Assembly: GCF_900232105.1 (NCBI RefSeq) | Contig: NZ_LT934425.1 | Location: 720,001-752,000 of the forward strand | Length of the DNA: 32,000 nt | Direction of reading: 5' to 3' | DNA from: Candidatus Kuenenia stuttgartensis | GTDB lineage: Bacteria; Planctomycetota; Brocadiia; Brocadiales; Brocadiaceae | Shown: positions 5,674-31,740 of the stretch, piece by piece | Position numbering within the stretch: the stretch's first letter is position 1 | Layout: each line of letters begins with the position of its first letter | Notes under the pieces: generated by a model | What the model was told of the DNA's origin: nothing | The model's database searches: none | What the model saw: only the letters and a program-made list of their open reading frames with translations | Position numbers and translations under genes: made by a program

Positions 5674-5748
5674 TGACCCCATGGGGATTTGAACCCCAGT
5701 TCACAGATCGAAAATCTGTTGTCCTAGACCAGACTAGACGATGGGGCC
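5674..5748 (-). tRNA. tRNA-Glu (anticodon UUC)
   Basis: Reverse complement GGCCCCATCGTCTAGTCTGGTCTAGGACAACAGATTTTCGATCTGTGAACTGGGGTTCAAATCCCCATGGGGTCA folds as a cloverleaf. Anticodon loop is TTTTCGA. CCA is not encoded. Confidence 0.9.
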
Positions 5749-5767: not shown

Positions 5768-5840
5768 TGAGGGCAGATGGACTCGAACCATCGACACCCG
5801 CCTTAAAAGGGCGGTGCTCTACCGACTGAGCTATGCCCCC
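5768..5840 (-). tRNA. tRNA-Lys (anticodon UUU)
   Basis: Reverse complement GGGGGCATAGCTCAGTCGGTAGAGCACCGCCCTTTTAAGGCGGGTGTCGATGGTTCGAGTCCATCTGCCCTCA. Anticodon stem CCGCC/GGCGG, loop CTTTTAA. Confidence 0.9.
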
Positions 5841-23113: not shown

Positions 23114-23141
23114 GTTCATAGTACAGGAACTTCAATATTAA

Positions 23142-23170
23142 TGTAGAGACGCATGCAATGCGTCTCTACA
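23142..23170. repeat. Palindromic hairpin TGTAGAGACGCAT-gca-ATGCGTCTCTACA (sister of 21530-21557); possible terminator of cobA/hemD
   Basis: 13-15 bp stem 29 nt after the cobA/hemD stop. No T-run follows. Confidence 0.7.
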
Positions 23171-23384
23171 TTGAAAAATCGCCAAAGGCATAATTTACTT
23201 CAAAAAATAAACCCCCTGCTTACTTGACCTACATCATTTTTTCACCCCCCCCGGAGAAACGTTCTATGTGCATTACAGCACAATGTTTTTCCAGTTGATA
23301 TGTCTGTAAATTCCATTTAATTTGAAACGCAATGTAATGTAAAAGGTATCGGTACCGCATATCACATATAAGGAGGCCATCAAT

Positions 23385-23430
23385 ATGAAAAGAGCAAATA
23401 TTAACATAAAAATATCCGTTATGTTTTTGT
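23385..23430 (+). pseudogene. Detached 5' end (signal-peptide n- and h-region) of the beta-propeller gene at 29092-31574
   Basis: AAGGAGG RBS at 23370-23376, ATG at 23385, encoding MKRANINIKISVMFL. The frame joins 29092 onward exactly when 23431-29091 is removed. Confidence 0.65.
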
Positions 23431-23486
23431 TTATAACGGATGTTCACCCCAAGTCAAAAAACAAAAGTGCCGTAAAAGCCTTATAT

Positions 23487-24378
23487 TTATTGGCTTTTAC
23501 GCCGAACAGCAAGCTTTTTTCTAGTGACTACCCGTATGTTCCGGCTTGGCAATACTTCTGGCAACTTTATCTGTAATGCCTCTAATAATTCATGTGATTG
23601 TTGCCGCGGACGCGGGATCTTCTGGCAACTAGCTTTTTGGCCTTTGATTGTTACTTCCATCGAACAAATGGTCGTCAATTGTGCGAGACCTTCCTCTACC
23701 GTCAAGTCAAAATTCTTCCACGCTCTGCGCAGCCTTCGAATTATCATGTACGCAAGCATTACCACAAACACATGTCCCCGTGTACTATCCTCCTTTCTTA
23801 CATACACCGGACGAACCTCCAAATTCACCGTCTTACAGTCCCGAAACGCCTTCTCCACTTCCGTTAAATCCTTGTATCGTTCATGTACCAGATTGGTATC
23901 CGCCTCGTTCTCCTCAAGATCAGTCTTGATTGCGTAACAACCATCAAGGTATGATGCCTCCTTTAATGCTTCCTCAGCTCTCTCTATCTTTAGCGTCCTA
24001 TCCTCTTCTTTTATCTGCACCCACCCATCAAGTTTCAATCTCGTTAGCCTTTCCCTTGTTGTTTCCAGGGCCTTCGATACTGACGACTTAGGATGTTCCT
24101 TCAGATAACTGTTCTTCTTCACGATGTATTTCTCTATACTCTGTAATTTTGATACACGGGTCTTTGACATCTCTTCCGCCCTTACCGGATTGCGCCTCAG
24201 AATATATCTAACCTCATCATCCTTTATCTCGCAGAGCTTTTCTTCGAACAATCCTAATTGCAGTATCCCTTTATTTATCAACGACTCTATCTGCGGCTTG
24301 GTTATCGCCGTTATGTAATGAAACCCTTCCGGTAAACTTTCGATTTGCACCGTCTTGATCATCCCACGATCTCCTACA
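23487..24378 (-). pseudogene. IS1634-family transposase, C-terminal half (split by the nested transposon)
   Basis: (VGDRG)MIKTVQIESL..GFHYITAI...YKDLTEVEKAFRDCKT.LEVRPVYVRKEDSTRGHVFVVMLAY. The codons VGDRG immediately upstream of the ATG are intact at 24363-24377. Confidence 0.85.
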
Positions 24379-24416
24379 TGCTAAGCCCCACAATAAATGA
24401 ACCTGGAATTCTCAGA

Positions 24417-24719
24417 TTAAGTGGAATTAATATATTGAGGTAAAACGGATTTTAGCAGATAGACAGCATCTGGGAAAGAGGAGTTGGAATCTACCATGAC
24501 GATGTCGATGGTATTAAAGTTTTTTTTACAACGGAAACACCTGGCGAGGTTCGTATTTGGGTTGGTGGCGGAATTAAATTCAGAACAGAGAGGGCAGAGG
24601 AAGCGGAAATAGCCTTCGGAGTATTTATGAGGTATGGAGAGGACATCAGCGATGAGTCGATCGATGGGGATATCGTTTCGTAATGAGCGCAAGAGTTGAG
24701 GGGAAAAGAGACGGGCCAT
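24417..24719 (-). CDS. Small primase-type (CHC2-like, here CCCC) zinc-finger protein
   Basis: 100 aa. IPIDRLIADVLSIPHKYSEGYFRFLCPLCSEFNSATNPNTNLARCFRCKKNFNTIDIVM follows the DnaG zinc-binding-domain pattern (CPxx.E....x(n)..CFxC......ID.VM). Confidence 0.6.
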   Translation of the reverse strand: MARLFSPQLLRSLRNDIPIDRLIADVLSIPHKYSEGYFRFLCPLCSEFNSATNPNTNLARCFRCKKNFNTIDIVMVDSNSSFPDAVYLLKSVLPQYINST

Positions 24720-24730
24720 GGTAGACCTCC

Positions 24731-25522
24731 TTAAAAAGATTGAATTTCAGCAAGAGCCTGATGGAAGATATCCTGGGTAATTTTCTGTGATTGTCTGATG
24801 GAAGCGTTAATCAGGCAGGCGGTGGAAATGGCGTTGATTTGCCTTGGGATGCCGGCGGAGAACTCATGGATCAGGTCTTTGACGTCTGAGTCAAAGATTT
24901 TATCGGATGCGCCGGAAGATTTCAGATGGAAGTCTATGTATGCAGCGGTTTGAGTTTTAGTAAGGGGATGAATGTGGTAATGTACCGAGATGCGTTGTGC
25001 GAAGTCGGCATGGATGTCTCTTTTGAGGATATATTTGAGGTGTTCCTGTCCCGAGAGGATGATTTTGAGATGAGTGGAAGAATCAAGCGGAGAGCTGACA
25101 AGGAGTCTGAGGTCTGTGATGGCGTCGGTTTTCAGGAGATGAGCCTCGTCGATAACGATAATGGGAGTGAGATTTGAGCGCAAGGATTTATCCATAATTT
25201 GGAGGAAGAGCCGGTCTTTGGTGTGTTTTGGTATTTCACCGAGCTGGGAGACGATTAAGGAGAGAAGGCTGGATGATTTTAGGTGGGTAAAATGGAGGTA
25301 GATGGGGAGAAACAGGTTTTGGGGGATTTGTGAGAGGAAGAGTTTGAGGAGTGTGGATTTTCCGACTCCCGTCTGTCCGTAGAGGACGGCGATAGAGCCT
25401 GAGTGTAAGAGGTATTGGAGTCGTGCAAGCCCCTGGGTAAAGCGTTCGTCTTTCATGATAAGGCTGGTGTTGATTCTTTCAGAGAACGGCTGAGTAGTCA
25501 TGGAAAAATGAGAAGTAAACAT
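24731..25522 (-). CDS. AAA+ ATPase, TniB/TnsC/ExeA-like (AAA_22 type) transposition helper
   Basis: 263 aa. Walker A YGQTGVGKSTLLK, Walker B IIVIDEAHLL, LRLL....THLKIILSGQ, QRISVHYHIHPLTKTQTAAYIDFHL, AGIPRQINAI. Start is 2 nt after the transposase stop. Confidence 0.8.
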   Translation of the reverse strand: MFTSHFSMTTQPFSERINTSLIMKDERFTQGLARLQYLLHSGSIAVLYGQTGVGKSTLLKLFLSQIPQNLFLPIYLHFTHLKSSSLLSLIVSQLGEIPKHTKDRLFLQIMDKSLRSNLTPIIVIDEAHLLKTDAITDLRLLVSSPLDSSTHLKIILSGQEHLKYILKRDIHADFAQRISVHYHIHPLTKTQTAAYIDFHLKSSGASDKIFDSDVKDLIHEFSAGIPRQINAISTACLINASIRQSQKITQDIFHQALAEIQSF

Positions 25523-25524
25523 GG

Positions 25525-27085
25525 TTAAGAGACCTCCTTTTTCGAGTAAGCGATTTGTAATTCACGAATGATATAGGGTAAGGTTTTCACGGAGGCATTT
25601 TGGAATGCCTCCGTGAGCAATGATTCGTTGAGAGCGGGGATACGGTTGTAGCATTTTTTAAGCGATTCGAGTTCATGAGAGCTGAAGGCGGAGAGAGAGC
25701 CTTTGTGTCCCATGAGGAGTGCGAGTTTCTGGACGAATGCCATGAATGGCCAGGGTCGTTCGGAGATGATTTGGTGGTAATCAATGCCTTTGGCCTGAGC
25801 CTGGAGAATGGATTTGTGTTTCTGAGTGATAAGGTCGAGGTAATTATGTTTTGGTTTTGAAGGTGAGGCGGCTGGAGTTTCAGCGCCCTGGTCGCGCAGG
25901 TAGAGATTTCCCGAGCCGAGGTATTCACCGTTTGCGGAATAGATCAAGACCTTTTTGAGATCGCCGTATGGGTCGTAACGGACTTCTACTTTATCGCCTC
26001 TGAGTTTGGGGTCAACACGGTAAAAGCGGTTATCAATGCGGACATCGGCAAAGGTTCTGTCAACGGTTCTGGGGATGCGTTTCATGAAGAAGGCAAGAGC
26101 GGCGTCCATATCGACGTGTCGGATGACGGTAAGCCCCTCGTCGTAGCGTTGTTTTGGAGATTGATTGGTTTCGGAGTGGATTCTTGCGTGATAGACAACG
26201 GCAAGGTAAGCGGAGAAGGCCTGGTTAATGGCATCAAGGGTGATAATGTCGCCGGAGCGGACTTCCGACTCGAACTATGTCTGGCTGGTGCCGAAGAAAC
26301 GTTCGACCAGTCCGCCGGGAGCAGGGTCGCGTGGTGGTCTGTGGATGAGTTTAATGCCGAGGTTGTAACAGGCAGAGCGCAGGGCGTCAGAGTGGTAGAC
26401 CTTGGCATTGTCGAGGTAGAGTTCTTTGGGCGAGCCGTGGATAGTCCAGGCCCTGATGAGAGAATCGATAAGGATATCGAGGGTTTGTTTGAGATAATAC
26501 CGTCCTTCGACCACATAACGGCTGTAGCAGTCGATAAAGAGACAGAGGTTTGTGGGAAGCGCCTCGCCGTCAACGAGCACGAAAGGGCCTTCCTGGAAGT
26601 CGCCAATCCAGAGGTCGTGGGTATGCTCACGGCTAAGAGCGTATACGCACCTTTTGCTGTGAGACGCCGAGTTTGAGCCGGGTCGCCCCTGCGAGTCTGA
26701 GATGGCGGTAGAGGGTGGATTTGGGGATCGTTTTCCCATAGTATTTCTCAAGAAAGCGGTTGAGGCAATCGTCGCTGCGGCGTGGTTGTTCTTTTTTGAG
26801 TTCAACGGCTTTGTCGATAATTTCAGGAGAAAACCTTCTGGATGCGCCACGGTCGCTCCTCGCCTTTCTTGCAAGAGATTGAAATCCATCTTTGCGGTAG
26901 CGGTTGAGTTTTCTCCTGAGGGTAGAGATAGTGGGTCTTTTCCGCTTTCCGTTGGGGAATACGACCTCCTGAAGGCAGAGTTTTTTCAGAAAAAGGTTGG
27001 TCTGCTCCTTCTCAATCTCACCGAAGATGACAGGATGCAGAAGATTGCACCAGAATAAAGCCCATTTTTCGTCTTTCGATTTCAT
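25525..27085 (-). pseudogene. TnsB/TniA/MuA-like DDE transposase (about 519 codons) disrupted by one frameshift and one in-frame TAG
   Basis: N-terminal HTH part in frame A (27085-26636). The catalytic core HTHDLWIGDF...FIDCYSRYVVG...LYLDNAKVYHS...GGLVERFFGT is in the +1 frame. TAG at 26275-26277 lies in the same frame as the downstream ORF, which carries the Mu-transposase C-domain-like RIDNRFYRVDPKLRGDKVEVRYDPYGDLKKVLIY. Confidence 0.8.
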
Positions 27086-27123
27086 AATTCACCTCCTTTT
27101 TTAAGTGTGGAGGTGATTGTAAC

Positions 27124-27762
27124 TCAAGACCAGCCGCTTTTTGTTGCCAGTTCGGGGAAAAATGAATGCCCAAAAATTCGGTGATATTCCGGCTCGGCGC
27201 TGAACAATTGAATCGATTGATCGAGGGAGGTTTTTCGTTGTTTGCTTTTATACTTTCCGTGGTAAATGGGAAACATTTGGCGAAAAACCGGAGAGTTGGG
27301 GTCGGCCTGCCTGATGAGGTCAAAGGCGTTGCGGAGTGTGTATTTCAGTGAGCCAAAGAAACGCAGCCACCTCCAAACGGTTGACCAGGCAAGCATGCGG
27401 TTGTCTATTTCCTGTGTTCGGGTAGTATATCCGATGGCAGAGGAGACACTCCGGTAGGTTTCTGTATCATCTTTGACATAAGCCTGACTGAAGGAGAGAC
27501 AGTGATCCTTTACGTACCGCTTGTAAGGGAGCGCATACTCAGGATAGGAAGTAAACGTCTTCTTGCACAAGGAACATTTCCAACGTCCCAGGAAAGATTC
27601 TATCGTATGAACAAGGGAGTCGATAATAACGTGAAACAACCGATATCTGCATTCATGAAGGGTGAAATTGACATGGGTACTCTTGCACTTTGGACAAAAG
27701 CATGGCTTCTGTTTTGTCGCAATAAGCTTTTCATGCTTGTGGATTTTTTCTATAATATTCAC
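27124..27762 (-). CDS. Double-CxxC zinc-ribbon protein, first gene of the transposon (function unknown)
   Basis: 212 aa. GTG start 6 nt after AAGGAGG. CFCPKC...(34 aa)...RWKCSLCKKTFTSYPEYALPYKRY. From memory it resembles transposon-associated DUF6431-type domains, but this is unverified. Confidence 0.6.
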   Translation of the reverse strand: MNIIEKIHKHEKLIATKQKPCFCPKCKSTHVNFTLHECRYRLFHVIIDSLVHTIESFLGRWKCSLCKKTFTSYPEYALPYKRYVKDHCLSFSQAYVKDDTETYRSVSSAIGYTTRTQEIDNRMLAWSTVWRWLRFFGSLKYTLRNAFDLIRQADPNSPVFRQMFPIYHGKYKSKQRKTSLDQSIQLFSAEPEYHRIFGHSFFPELATKSGWS

Positions 27763-27790
27763 GCACTGCCTCCTTTGTATAGGGGGGAAA

Positions 27791-27843
27791 TGGGCAGGAG
27801 GATGAAGTTTCCCAACGTTCGGTCCTCCTGCCCTGAGTTTTTT
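27791..27843 (+). terminator. Strong hairpin plus T-run in the transposon leader region (plus-strand intrinsic-terminator shape)
   Basis: GGGCAGGAGGA (27791-27801) pairs with TCCTCCTGCCC (27822-27832), followed by TGAG and seven T. The orientation is antisense to the transposon genes. Confidence 0.5.
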
Positions 27844-28168
27844 ATGTTCCGGAAAAATCTTACAAAACTTGTCCTCGTGAAAACGGGGAACTGGGAAGTA
27901 AACCGCCGTTAGGAAGTTTGGAAGTGGTTTTAACCCCTTCCAAACTATTTAATGAGGCTTTACTCCGCCTTACGGACGTAACTTCTTTCTAACGGGGTAA
28001 ACGATGTATTTTTCTTAACGTGAACAAAAAATCAAGTGAAATACTTACGCAGGATAAAAAAAAGGCGGGGTAGCTGGGTAAGATTTTTCAAATCATTTGC
28101 TGGGTATTAGACTCAAATATTCTGAGACTAATTGGGCATTTTTGGAGCATTTATTCTAAGACGTAGCA

Positions 28169-28965
28169 CCTACAATCGTTACATCTTTGCATCCAAACCG
28201 CTCTAATACCTTCTTTACCTGTGATTCAAAGGTCTTCGGATCCTGGGTGTTGCCCCTAAATACTTCTGTTGATACCGGCTCCCCGGATTCATCACAAAGC
28301 ATACCGATCACTATCTGTTTTTTCCTCTTTTTGCCGTCACGATTATACCCGTACTCACCAAAATGATTCGACTTCCCCTCTAAATAACTGCTCGTCACGT
28401 CATACAAAAACAACTTCGGCTTATTGCCTCCTCGTCTTAACTCAAACAGCTTTCGCTCTATCTTTGCCTGATTCTCTGACAACCATGACAAATTATCGTA
28501 CAGATTGTTCTCGTCAAACCCACGCTTCATATCCAGGACGTCACCCGCAGCATGTATCTGCGCCAGCCTTACTGCAGACAGTCTTGACCCCCGGCCTATT
28601 ACCCTTGCCATTACTTGCCAAAGCGCCAGCTTTCCTTCAAAGTCCTTTCCCAATGCCTCTTCTATCCCTAATTCCTTTGCCACTTGGTACACGCTCCACG
28701 CTGCTCCCACAGACAAACCCTCATGGAGTTTCACCGATTCTGACAATGCGCCCAATGCACAGAGATCGTCTTTATGTGCGAGTGCAAGTCTTATCGCTTC
28801 AATCTCCAGGGGAGTGCAATTCGACAGATTCGCAATGGTGCGTTTCTTGACCTTCCCATCCTCACGGTACGATTCCCGCAGAAGGGTAGATCGATAGATT
28901 TTTTTACCGGATTTTGACTTGTTCTCTACAATATGCATGTCCACCATTGTACAGATAACAACCAT
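28169..28965 (-). pseudogene. IS1634-family transposase, N-terminal half (split by the nested transposon)
   Basis: MHIVENKSKSGKKIYRSTLLRESYREDGKVKKRTIANLS...FLYDVTSSYLEG...GYNRDGKKRKKQIVIGMLCDESGEPVSTEVFRGNTQD...FGCKDVTIVG, then runs into the transposon end (ATS*). The likely true start is the ATG at 28938. Confidence 0.85.
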
Positions 28966-29171
28966 TATCAGTCAAGTATATTGTCGGATAATAACAATAT
29001 ATTAGTGACTACATATTTATTAAAAATACAGCCTTAACCAACTATTTATTAAGCACTTATGCGTTTTGGCAGGGGTGAACATCCGTTATAATATTCCTGG
29101 GATCGGCAGCTTTCGCAGACCAAAGCGGTAAACAAAAAACATTACATCAGGAGATAGTTAAAAAAGCGCAA

Positions 29172-31662: not shown

Positions 31663-31740
<78 letters not shown>

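Follow-up and report, generated by a model that had tools for sequence, protein, structure and literature searches.

Introduction

What is the 3.8-kb segment that separates the two halves of an IS1634 transposase gene in Candidatus Kuenenia stuttgartiensis? The locus lies in a stretch of 32,000 nucleotides (contig NZ_LT934425.1, assembly GCF_900232105.1, positions 720,001 to 752,000), here called the window, to which all coordinates without a locus label refer. A first-pass annotation of the window, made from the sequence alone, had described the segment as a compact transposon in which a TnsB-like transposase is paired with an AAA+ protein and accompanied by two small zinc proteins. The analysis reported below indicates that the element is very probably a defective copy of a cargo-free, insertion sequence (IS)-like DDE transposon, and that it represents a widespread family with four genes.

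Results

The element has exact ends inside an IS1634 transposase gene

The left junction of the element reads gatct-CCTACA-TGCTAAGCC and the right junction reads GACGTAGCA-CCTACA-atcg, and the terminal inverted repeats are identical at 18 of 25 positions. The junctions, the CCTACA repeats, and the inverted repeats described previously were all reproduced in the window sequence (Table 1). When positions 24379-28174 are deleted in silico, the flanking open reading frames (ORFs) become one frame, ...FGCKDVTIVGDRGMIKTVQIE... (= ...VTIVGDRGMIKTVQIE...), and both halves match the curated IS1634 model (NF033559, model length 483) contiguously, each scoring above the 100-bit cutoff by itself, in agreement with the in-frame fusion that had been predicted. 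A degenerate end motif is present in the 32-kb window at just two places, 24379-24399 and 28148-28168, when the chance expectation was 0.00 (100 shuffles). The element is also richer in G+C than its flanks (47.3% vs 41.2%), as noted earlier. A second GTCYCAGATTAA.TG-type site lies ~24 bp inward of the right terminus and is kept in the ends of elements from other species.

Other copies provided an independent view of the boundaries. The exact ATPase protein of the window is encoded in Candidatus Kuenenia stuttgartiensis assemblies, and the window locus corresponds to contig OCTL01000098 of GCA_900232175.1. Ten loci were fetched from three Kuenenia assemblies; L001 is the window locus, and L005 and L009 represent one shared insertion site. 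The copies at these loci are all 3,790 bp long, have identical ends and differing flanks, and depart from the window copy by no more than 7 bases. Because ten copies share their length and ends in differing flanks, the element boundaries are settled independently, and the description of a precisely bounded, cargo-free element stands. A matching duplication is kept in 4 of the 10 (6, 6, 5, and 5 bp). The left flank of L007 has its match (CTTCAC) in the right flank of L002, and L003 and L006 have one left flank in common, which points to recombination or inversion between copies, or to replicative intramolecular events.

Table 1. Coordinates of the transposon, its genes, its ends, and the interrupted IS1634 gene in the window
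Feature	Position	Strand	Details
Transposon	24379..28168	minus	3,790 bp, four minus-strand genes, zero cargo
Target-site duplication, left copy, CCTACA	24373..24378	.	Same as 28169-28174, abuts element end
Target-site duplication, right copy, CCTACA	28169..28174	.	Read at junction
Right-end (gene-distal) terminal inverted repeat and putative outer transposase-type site, TGCTAAGCCCCACAATAAATGAACC	24379..24403	plus	
Right-end inner putative transposase-type site, ATTCTCAGATTAAGTGG	24407..24423	plus	Overlaps stop codon of zinc-finger gene
Left-end terminal inverted repeat, TGCTACGTCTTAGAATAAATGCTCC	28144..28168	minus	
Left-end inner putative transposase-type site, GTCTCAGAATATTTGAG	28112..28128	minus	Element positions 41-57, direct repeat of terminal motif
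Array of ACCC(A/C)GC direct repeats, left end only	28062..28108	minus	3 copies, element positions 65, 91, 99
DUF6431 protein, 212 aa	27124..27762	minus	CxxC...CxxC zinc ribbon and conserved STVWRWL helix
Transposase pseudogene	25525..27085	minus	Pfam matches on pieces; intact relatives 519 aa with HTH_32, rve, Mu-transpos_C
Frameshift lesion, TCTTAGC	26632..26638	minus	Intact relative TGGAGC; creates TAG ending 150-aa ORF-A
In-frame TAG	26275..26277	minus	CAG in every other copy; window copy only
AAA+ ATPase, 263 aa	24731..25522	minus	Walker A GQTGVGKS, Walker B IDEAH; Pfam AAA_22, 5e-21
Primase-type zinc-binding protein, 100 aa	24417..24719	minus	Cys4 variant of CHC2 fold
IS1634 transposase gene, C-terminal half	23487..24378	minus	NF033559 transpos_IS1634, 126 bits, model positions 222-482
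IS1634 transposase gene, N-terminal half	28169..28965	minus	NF033559, 148 bits, model positions 1-215

Four genes encode a transposase, an ATPase, and two zinc proteins

Pfam searches identified HTH_32, rve, and Mu-transpos_C domains in the transposase, the last of them in 16 of 17 members, and the family alignment shows no variation in the catalytic triad (D162, D225, and E261). The best family match of this protein is the PHROG 310 transposase (142 bits, 7e-41). Over its N-terminal 313 residues, it aligns end to end with the curated IS481 model, against which it scores 132 bits and four intact members score 123-138 bits, with a cutoff of 224. The best solved structure is ShCAST TnsB (8e-13, 51 bits), and Tn6677 TnsB was found at 0.013.

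The ATPase aligns over its full length with the ExeA-like model TIGR03015 (143 bits, under the model cutoff) and matches the PHROG 296 "DNA transposition protein" (7e-24, 85 bits). When the ATPase family profile was compared with solved structures, it matched MuB (8xvb, 3e-6, ~30 bits), ShCAST TnsC (1e-3), and VchTnsC (0.02). Pfam TniB was matched weakly by 4 of 19 ATPases, and IstB_IS21 by none of the 19. From its sequence, the protein looks like an ATPase of the ExeA/MuB AAA_22 type rather than of the TniB type. The pairing of an rve-type transposase with an AAA+ partner, proposed in the first-pass annotation, is supported by these profile searches, in which rve, Mu-transpos_C, and AAA_22 were all matched.

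What had been called a primase-type zinc finger has the zinc-binding fold of DnaG. This 100-aa protein scores 26.3 bits against Pfam Zn_ribbon_DnaG (PF01807, cutoff 24.9), a model that 28 of 28 family members match, and its AlphaFold2 (AF2) model has a predicted local distance difference test score (pLDDT) of 92. The top Foldseek match of the model is the DnaG zinc-binding domain (1d0q), with a template modeling (TM) score of 0.74 and a root mean square deviation of 2.3 A. Four cysteines occupy the CHC2 ligand positions, a cysteine replacing the histidine. We know of no copy of the primase zinc-binding domain in any other transposon.

The double-CxxC protein of the earlier description corresponds to DUF6431 (PF20020). 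The window protein scores 21.4 bits (cutoff 26.6), 24 of 24 aligned relatives match the model (best, 1e-7), and residues C23, C26, C63, and C66 are invariant. Its relatives, 587 at 50% clustering, are always stand-alone proteins.

No TniQ match was obtained at E<=0.1 for 24 DUF6431 or 28 zinc-protein members, no fifth conserved gene lies inside the element, and none of the four genes between the ends matches a TnsA or recombinase model, consistent with the previous statement that TnsA, TniQ, and a resolvase are lacking. Present annotation labels the products "Mu transposase C-terminal domain-containing protein," "AAA family ATPase," "DNA primase," and "hypothetical protein."

The transposase gene of the window copy carries two lesions

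The interval 25525-27085, given as the transposase in the first-pass annotation, does not form a single ORF: the gene is split by a +1-nt lesion and by a TAG codon, which the annotation had overlooked. At the site of the lesion, a 98.7%-identical metagenomic (Logan) contig, L095, has no frameshift and reads CGC TGG AGC, and Kuenenia reads CGC TCT TAG C, a net gain of 1 nt with an instant TAG. The lesion divides the gene into a part that encodes a 150-aa helix-turn-helix (HTH) protein and the catalytic remainder, and it is common to all ten near-identical Kuenenia copies first fetched. The second change, at element position 1892, is a T in the window copy and a C in the 9 other Kuenenia copies. 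Because its transposase gene contains both a frameshift and a nonsense codon, the window copy cannot be autonomous; it could be mobile only if transposase were supplied in trans.

A 519-aa ORF in the window's own assembly (P0002; L094 2917-6706) was considered as the product of an autonomous copy and rejected. Its frame is restored by the loss of one G in a G-run, and four single-base indels, each in a homopolymer run, set the L094 copy apart from the others. With three further homopolymer indels alongside the frame-restoring loss, a pattern typical of sequencing error, this frame is probably a sequencing or assembly artifact.

Relatives of the element form a large family

Searches with the reconstructed transposase gave more than 1,520 homologues, most of them single ORFs of 514-534 aa, and intact homologues of 518-524 aa exist. 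Many are located on contigs of 3.5-4.2 kb, as expected of a collapsed repeat. A scan of one genome per species yielded at least 224 confirmed relative loci, and taxonomy and gene order were taken from the best 80 of these. The taxa represented are Desulfobacterota, Planctomycetota, Chloroflexota, Bacteroidales, Cloacimonadota, Pseudomonadota, and others. All four genes are present in 67 of the 80 loci, with the DUF6431 gene first and those for the transposase, ATPase, and zinc-binding protein following in that order, and at least 8 of the 13 incomplete ones are contigs that end inside or just past the ATPase or transposase gene. Across loci, identity is 31-45% for the DUF6431 protein, 49-63% for the transposase, 42-58% for the ATPase, and 47-67% for the zinc-binding protein. 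Four other genomes, including that of the isolate Desulfoferrobacter suflitae DRH4, each contain 7-9 near-identical copies with clean boundaries. The window element is far from rare and belongs to a large family.

Elements of this family range from 3.7 to 4.3 kb. The D. suflitae element (4,321 bp, L038 4432-8752) has ~600 bp extra at its gene-upstream end, and in a Planctomycetota element (4,065 bp, L075 5051-9115) a spacer of 325 bp separates the ATPase gene from the zinc-protein gene. The coding strand is C-rich family-wide: in a set that comprised the window element, the elements in L013, L038, L050, and L075, and 32 short contigs, GC skew ranged from ~-0.10 (median of the 32 short contigs) to -0.26. 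Element G+C was above that of the host flanks in 5 of 5 genomes examined. Extra ends or partial copies, some inverted, occur within a few kilobases of full copies (L014 1-2173; L051 ~2539; L057 ~13435), which is evidence against strong target immunity. Members on 3.5-3.7-kb contigs were also found in two bins classified as archaeal, the metagenome-assembled genomes (MAGs) L020 (Methanophagaceae) and L033 (Thermoplasmatales); such short contigs are easily mis-binned. If true, archaeal members would take transposons of the Mu/Tn7 type, with a DDE transposase plus an AAA+ protein, into archaea.

No relatives were found in IMG/VR, so phage carriage is not supported, and the sole match in a search of defense models (PADLOC) was a weak one to TnsB (TnsB_V-K, 33 bits). 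Distant relatives with three genes (DUF6431, DDE, and AAA, ~30% identity) are present on Streptomyces plasmids, for example in Streptomyces subrutilus, and a Thermobacillus plasmid has a DDE plus AAA pair but lacks an annotated DUF6431 gene. Clostridium sp. JS66 contains 15 three-gene copies, for which a 2026 preprint has no name beyond "repetitive gene cassettes" (10.64898/2026.08.16.744336).

End architecture and target duplications

Target duplications were surveyed in 40 copies from five genomes, 30 of which have a duplication of 5-7 bp. Its length is 6 bp in 24 of these copies, while three copies have 5 bp and three have 7 bp; the remaining 10 copies have none. The first-pass annotation had given a duplication of 5-6 bp and had taken 5 bp as a hallmark; the window duplication is indeed within that range at 6 bp, but 5 bp is not the norm of the family, since 24 of the 30 scored copies have 6 bp. 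Within the 6-bp duplications, the middle two positions favor T and A, each in 16 of 24 copies, and this weak central TA was the only sign of a sequence-specific target within the duplication.

The ends conform to the family consensus T(G/C)CTA(A/C)GTC(C/T)CA..TA..TGA, and a second related site lies ~24-35 bp inward at both ends, giving two putative tandem transposase-type sites per end that are conserved across species. At the gene-upstream end there are (A/T)(A/T)CCC(C)G(C/T) direct repeats, 1-7 per element by a strict pattern and more by eye with a looser motif. At the opposite end, the repeat is missing from 8 of 10 elements taken from different species; L038 and L086, which are close relatives, carry a single copy there. 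The array is positioned just inside the two terminal sites, with a spacing that is sometimes ~9-11 bp (examples are window 28062-28108; L019 133-330; L030 1311-1510; L075 5051-5250; L038 4432-4630). This left-end array may serve the DUF6431 protein, or the HTH of the transposase, as an operator or enhancer. Most right ends terminate in a G+C-rich hairpin.

Abutted right and left ends, as in a circle or tandem dimer (within 30 bp), were not found in 100 loci, a weak negative because assemblies seldom retain them. A crude test of orientation relative to replication showed no bias, with 19 of 39 copies having flanks of positive GC skew (p = 1). Among ten interrupted genes examined, a subset chosen by eye, 7-8 were integrase, transposase, restriction, conjugation, or DruA-fused genes. 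Targeting of mobile DNA was set aside as an explanation, as the survival of neutral insertions accounts for this equally well.

The insertion site and other features of the window

Similarity to other Kuenenia copies of the interrupted IS1634 element extends from ~23427 to ~29091, and no uninterrupted copy of it was present among the fetched loci. The ORF specific to the junction is recorded solely in the window's own assembly, and the same intergenic site is occupied by a different IS in GCA_027493735.1; the window insertion is therefore strain-specific. The gap between a cobA/hemD fusion gene and an 800-aa SBBP-repeat gene (window 23114-29171; L098 5954-8000) is a landing pad for ISs: a DDE_Tnp_1_4 IS is located in this gap in another Kuenenia assembly, and several contigs stop 114-139 bp 5' of the SBBP-repeat gene. 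The Kuenenia IS1634-type element has been struck by this transposon at three positions in three copies, at transposase residues ~266, ~466, and ~177 (window 23427-29091; L008 3020-3354; L094 6707-7363). These repeated strikes could be due to a target preference or to survival of neutral insertions.

A scan of the window element for promoters and terminators gave nothing decisive. The untranslated leader 5' of the DUF6431 gene contains, at 27897-27964, a 33-nt inverted repeat that is imperfect (76% complementary) and has a 2-nt loop. The sole Rfam matches in the window are three minus-strand tRNA genes (5674-5748, 5768-5840, and 31666-31740).

Discussion

A mechanism suggested by remote homologues

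By analogy with MuA/MuB and TnsB/TnsC, the transposase of an intact element would bind the paired end sites and synapse the ends, expose a 3'-OH at the terminal ...CA, and join both ends to the target with a 6-bp stagger. The ATPase would coat or mark target DNA, capture the target, and activate the transposase. Because neither a TnsA-type nuclease nor a resolvase is encoded, the 5' strands must go to host replication or repair or enter a copy-out route. More speculatively, the DUF6431 zinc-ribbon/HTH protein might bind the left-end ACCC(C)GC array as a regulator or architectural factor, and the primase-type zinc-binding protein might bridge the ATPase to DNA or to host replication.

Several points weigh against the interpretation given above, or against parts of it. 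All ten Kuenenia copies are frameshifted, yet they occupy many sites and vary between strains, a pattern that does not follow from a plain dead-element view; trans-mobilization, gene conversion, and +1 recoding at TCT-TAG-C are possible causes of the spread of such copies. Six of the ten (L002, L003, L006, L007, L008, and L010) are without matching duplications, and later rearrangement is needed to account for them. The catalytic steps are carried over by analogy from remote homologues (~30 bits for MuB, ~51 bits for TnsB), and any links of either zinc protein to the ATPase, the ends, or the target are putative and speculative. The AF2 model of the DUF6431 protein has a pLDDT of 61, and Foldseek and PDB profile searches with it gave nothing usable; with a poor model and no structural match, its DNA-binding role is suggested by its motifs. 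Finally, no published name or curated model was found for the four-gene family in the literature and among curated models, ISfinder being outside the scope of the search; this agrees with the suggestion of the first-pass annotation that the element is possibly undescribed and leaves "unnamed" unproven.

Alternative explanations

We regard as a tentative possibility that the family constitutes a distinct, unnamed lineage of DDE plus AAA+ elements, located between IS481-type ISs and the Mu/Tn7 machines, with the two zinc proteins as a new accessory module. The DnaG-domain protein could then link strand transfer with priming or replication restart by the host, or it could select targets via single-stranded or gapped DNA, and the DUF6431 protein could read the left-end array. 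Descent by reduction from the Tn7/Tn5053 lineage, the 100-aa zinc protein being a degenerate target selector of the TniQ type, seems improbable to us. The gene order does mirror tnsB, tnsC, and tniQ, the ends are asymmetric and contain repeated sites, and TnsB and TnsC were recovered in the searches (ShCAST TnsB at 8e-13, TnsC at 1e-3, and PADLOC TnsB_V-K at 33 bits), but the IS481 and phage-transposase models outscore TnsB, TniB is matched weakly and in 4 of 19 ATPases, and the duplication is 6 bp rather than 5. In addition, TniQ is matched by 0 of 28 zinc proteins and 0 of 24 DUF6431 proteins, the former having a DnaG zinc-binding fold, and the element has no cargo, attachment-site specificity, or resolvase. 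Of the features for which the first-pass annotation named a Mu/Tn7/Tn5053/Tn552 superfamily, the combination of rve/Mu-C domains with an AAA+ protein is supported; similarity to TnsB and TnsC is remote, the IS481 and phage models are nearer, and Tn552 is marginal. We likewise doubt that the element could be assigned, as an atypical case, to an established IS family, either as an IS481 element with helper genes or as an IS21 element with another ATPase. Alignment of the N-terminal 313 residues with the IS481 model at 132 bits and the TA-centered 6-bp duplication, which resembles the NCTAGN habit of IS481, would fit the former, and the latter would be fitted by IS21, whose DDE transposase likewise works with an AAA+ helper and whose terminal sites are repeated. 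These scores, however, are far under the cutoffs (132 vs 224 for IS481 and 45 vs 160 for IS21), IstB_IS21 is found in 0 of 19 ATPases, and IS481 elements have neither the 200-aa C-terminal extension, which contains a Mu-type barrel, nor the three additional conserved genes.

Two further proposals concern the Kuenenia copies themselves. They might still be autonomous if ribosomes shifted by +1 at TCT-TAG-C, producing a 519-aa protein (...IRS-SREHTHDLW...) from a regulatory frameshift, a device that IS3 and IS1 elements use. The ten copies in three assemblies that share the lesion, at many sites and strain-variable, speak for such recoding; the stop codon would be in the A site, and the +1 frame rejoins the conserved sequence without a gap. 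We nevertheless think recoding unlikely, since re-pairing from TCT to CTT is poor, inspection of the sequence revealed no Shine-Dalgarno-like stimulator at prfB-type spacing, intact single-ORF transposases are the norm of the family, and the "repaired" L094 copy has four homopolymer indels that resemble sequencing errors; trans-mobilization or gene conversion fits the pattern equally. That the segment is instead a nonmobile chromosomal cassette, a defense or regulatory module between two gene fragments, can be given almost no credence. The ATPase does weakly match STAND and Avs-type NTPase models, but TnsB is the only match among the defense models, in silico excision restores the interrupted gene, and exact ends, inverted repeats, and duplications recur at 30 independent sites in five genomes. 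Based on the above considerations, we retain the interpretation of the window element as a defective member of a widespread, cargo-free transposon family.

Significance of the family

ATPase-assisted DDE transposons, such as Mu, Tn7, CRISPR-associated transposons (CAST), and IS21, underlie programmable DNA-insertion tools, and their origins and minimal requirements are debated. If the family is a distinct lineage, it would provide a compact, cargo-free, four-gene model of the origin of ATPase-assisted transposition. In place of the customary target selector and enzymes for the second strand, it has two small zinc proteins, and this arrangement may reveal a new coupling of transposition to DNA or to replication. 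As the family is compact, abundant, distributed across phyla, and present in the cultured isolate D. suflitae DRH4, it is experimentally tractable. Recognizing it would also improve annotation and account for many of the breaks that produce 3.5-4.2-kb metagenome contigs. The impact of the window copy alone is small, as it is a dead copy inside another dead IS.

Comparison with known transposon systems

In its protein pair, the element remotely resembles phage Mu, with MuA and MuB, and the Mu-like phages, with which it has its best family-level scores and in which a DDE transposase with an rve domain and a Mu-type C-terminal barrel is paired with an AAA+ "DNA transposition protein." Also as in Mu, the ends terminate in ...CA, there are several putative transposase sites per end, and neither a second-strand nuclease nor a resolvase is present. 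Unlike Mu, the element is 3.8 kb in length, is not a phage and has no phage genes, and generates a 6-bp rather than a 5-bp duplication; its transposase has an HTH_32/IS481-like N terminus in which no MuA-specific end- or enhancer-binding domain was found, and it encodes two additional zinc proteins. A 5-bp duplication is typical of Mu, Tn7, and Tn5053.

With the Tn7-like elements (Tn7, Tn5053/Tn402, and type V-K CAST), the element shares the order of transposase, ATPase, and small zinc protein, remote homology to TnsB and TnsC, and asymmetric ends with repeated, putative binding sites; the absence of TnsA is shared with Tn5053 and V-K CAST. It differs from them in having no TniQ/TnsD domain, resolvase, cargo, or attachment site, and in having a 6-bp duplication, just two transposase-type sites per end, and an upstream DUF6431 gene. 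Tn552 encodes the p480 transposase, the p271 ATP-binding protein, and BinL; each of its ends has two transposase sites, and it makes a duplication of 6-7 bp, both much as in the element. Its protein sizes are similar to those of the element, which differs in having no resolvase, res site, or resistance cargo. Tn552 was rejected as the nearest relative, since the Tn552 region of pMW2 shows marginal similarity, which amounts to 26% over 102 aa in the transposase and does not go beyond the P-loop in the ATPase.

Among ISs, IS481 provides the nearest curated transposase model, which aligns over the HTH and the DDE core, and the 6-bp duplication with a weak TA-centered palindromic preference is a further likeness, the duplications of IS481 typically being NCTAGN. 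The transposase of the element is ~200 aa longer, contains a Mu C-domain, and scores well under the cutoff, and in contrast to IS481, which is a single gene of ~1 kb, the element has three more conserved genes and is >3x longer. IS21 (IstA/IstB) resembles it in combining a DDE transposase with an AAA+ helper, repeated terminal sites, and ends of the TG/CA type. The IstA model, however, scores 45-47 bits against a cutoff of 160 and is absent in 2 of 4 members; the element has no IstB_IS21 domain, has other accessory genes, and shows no abutted-end junctions in 100 loci.

The three-gene cassettes of Actinomycetota and Bacillota have the first three genes in the same order, with ~30% identity in the transposase and ATPase, and differ in having no gene for the primase-type zinc-binding protein; they are likewise unnamed in the literature found. 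Judged by its sequence, the element would work like an ATPase-assisted transposon of the Mu/Tn7/IS21 type, yet it appears to fit none of the Tn7-like, IS21, IS481, or Mu groups.

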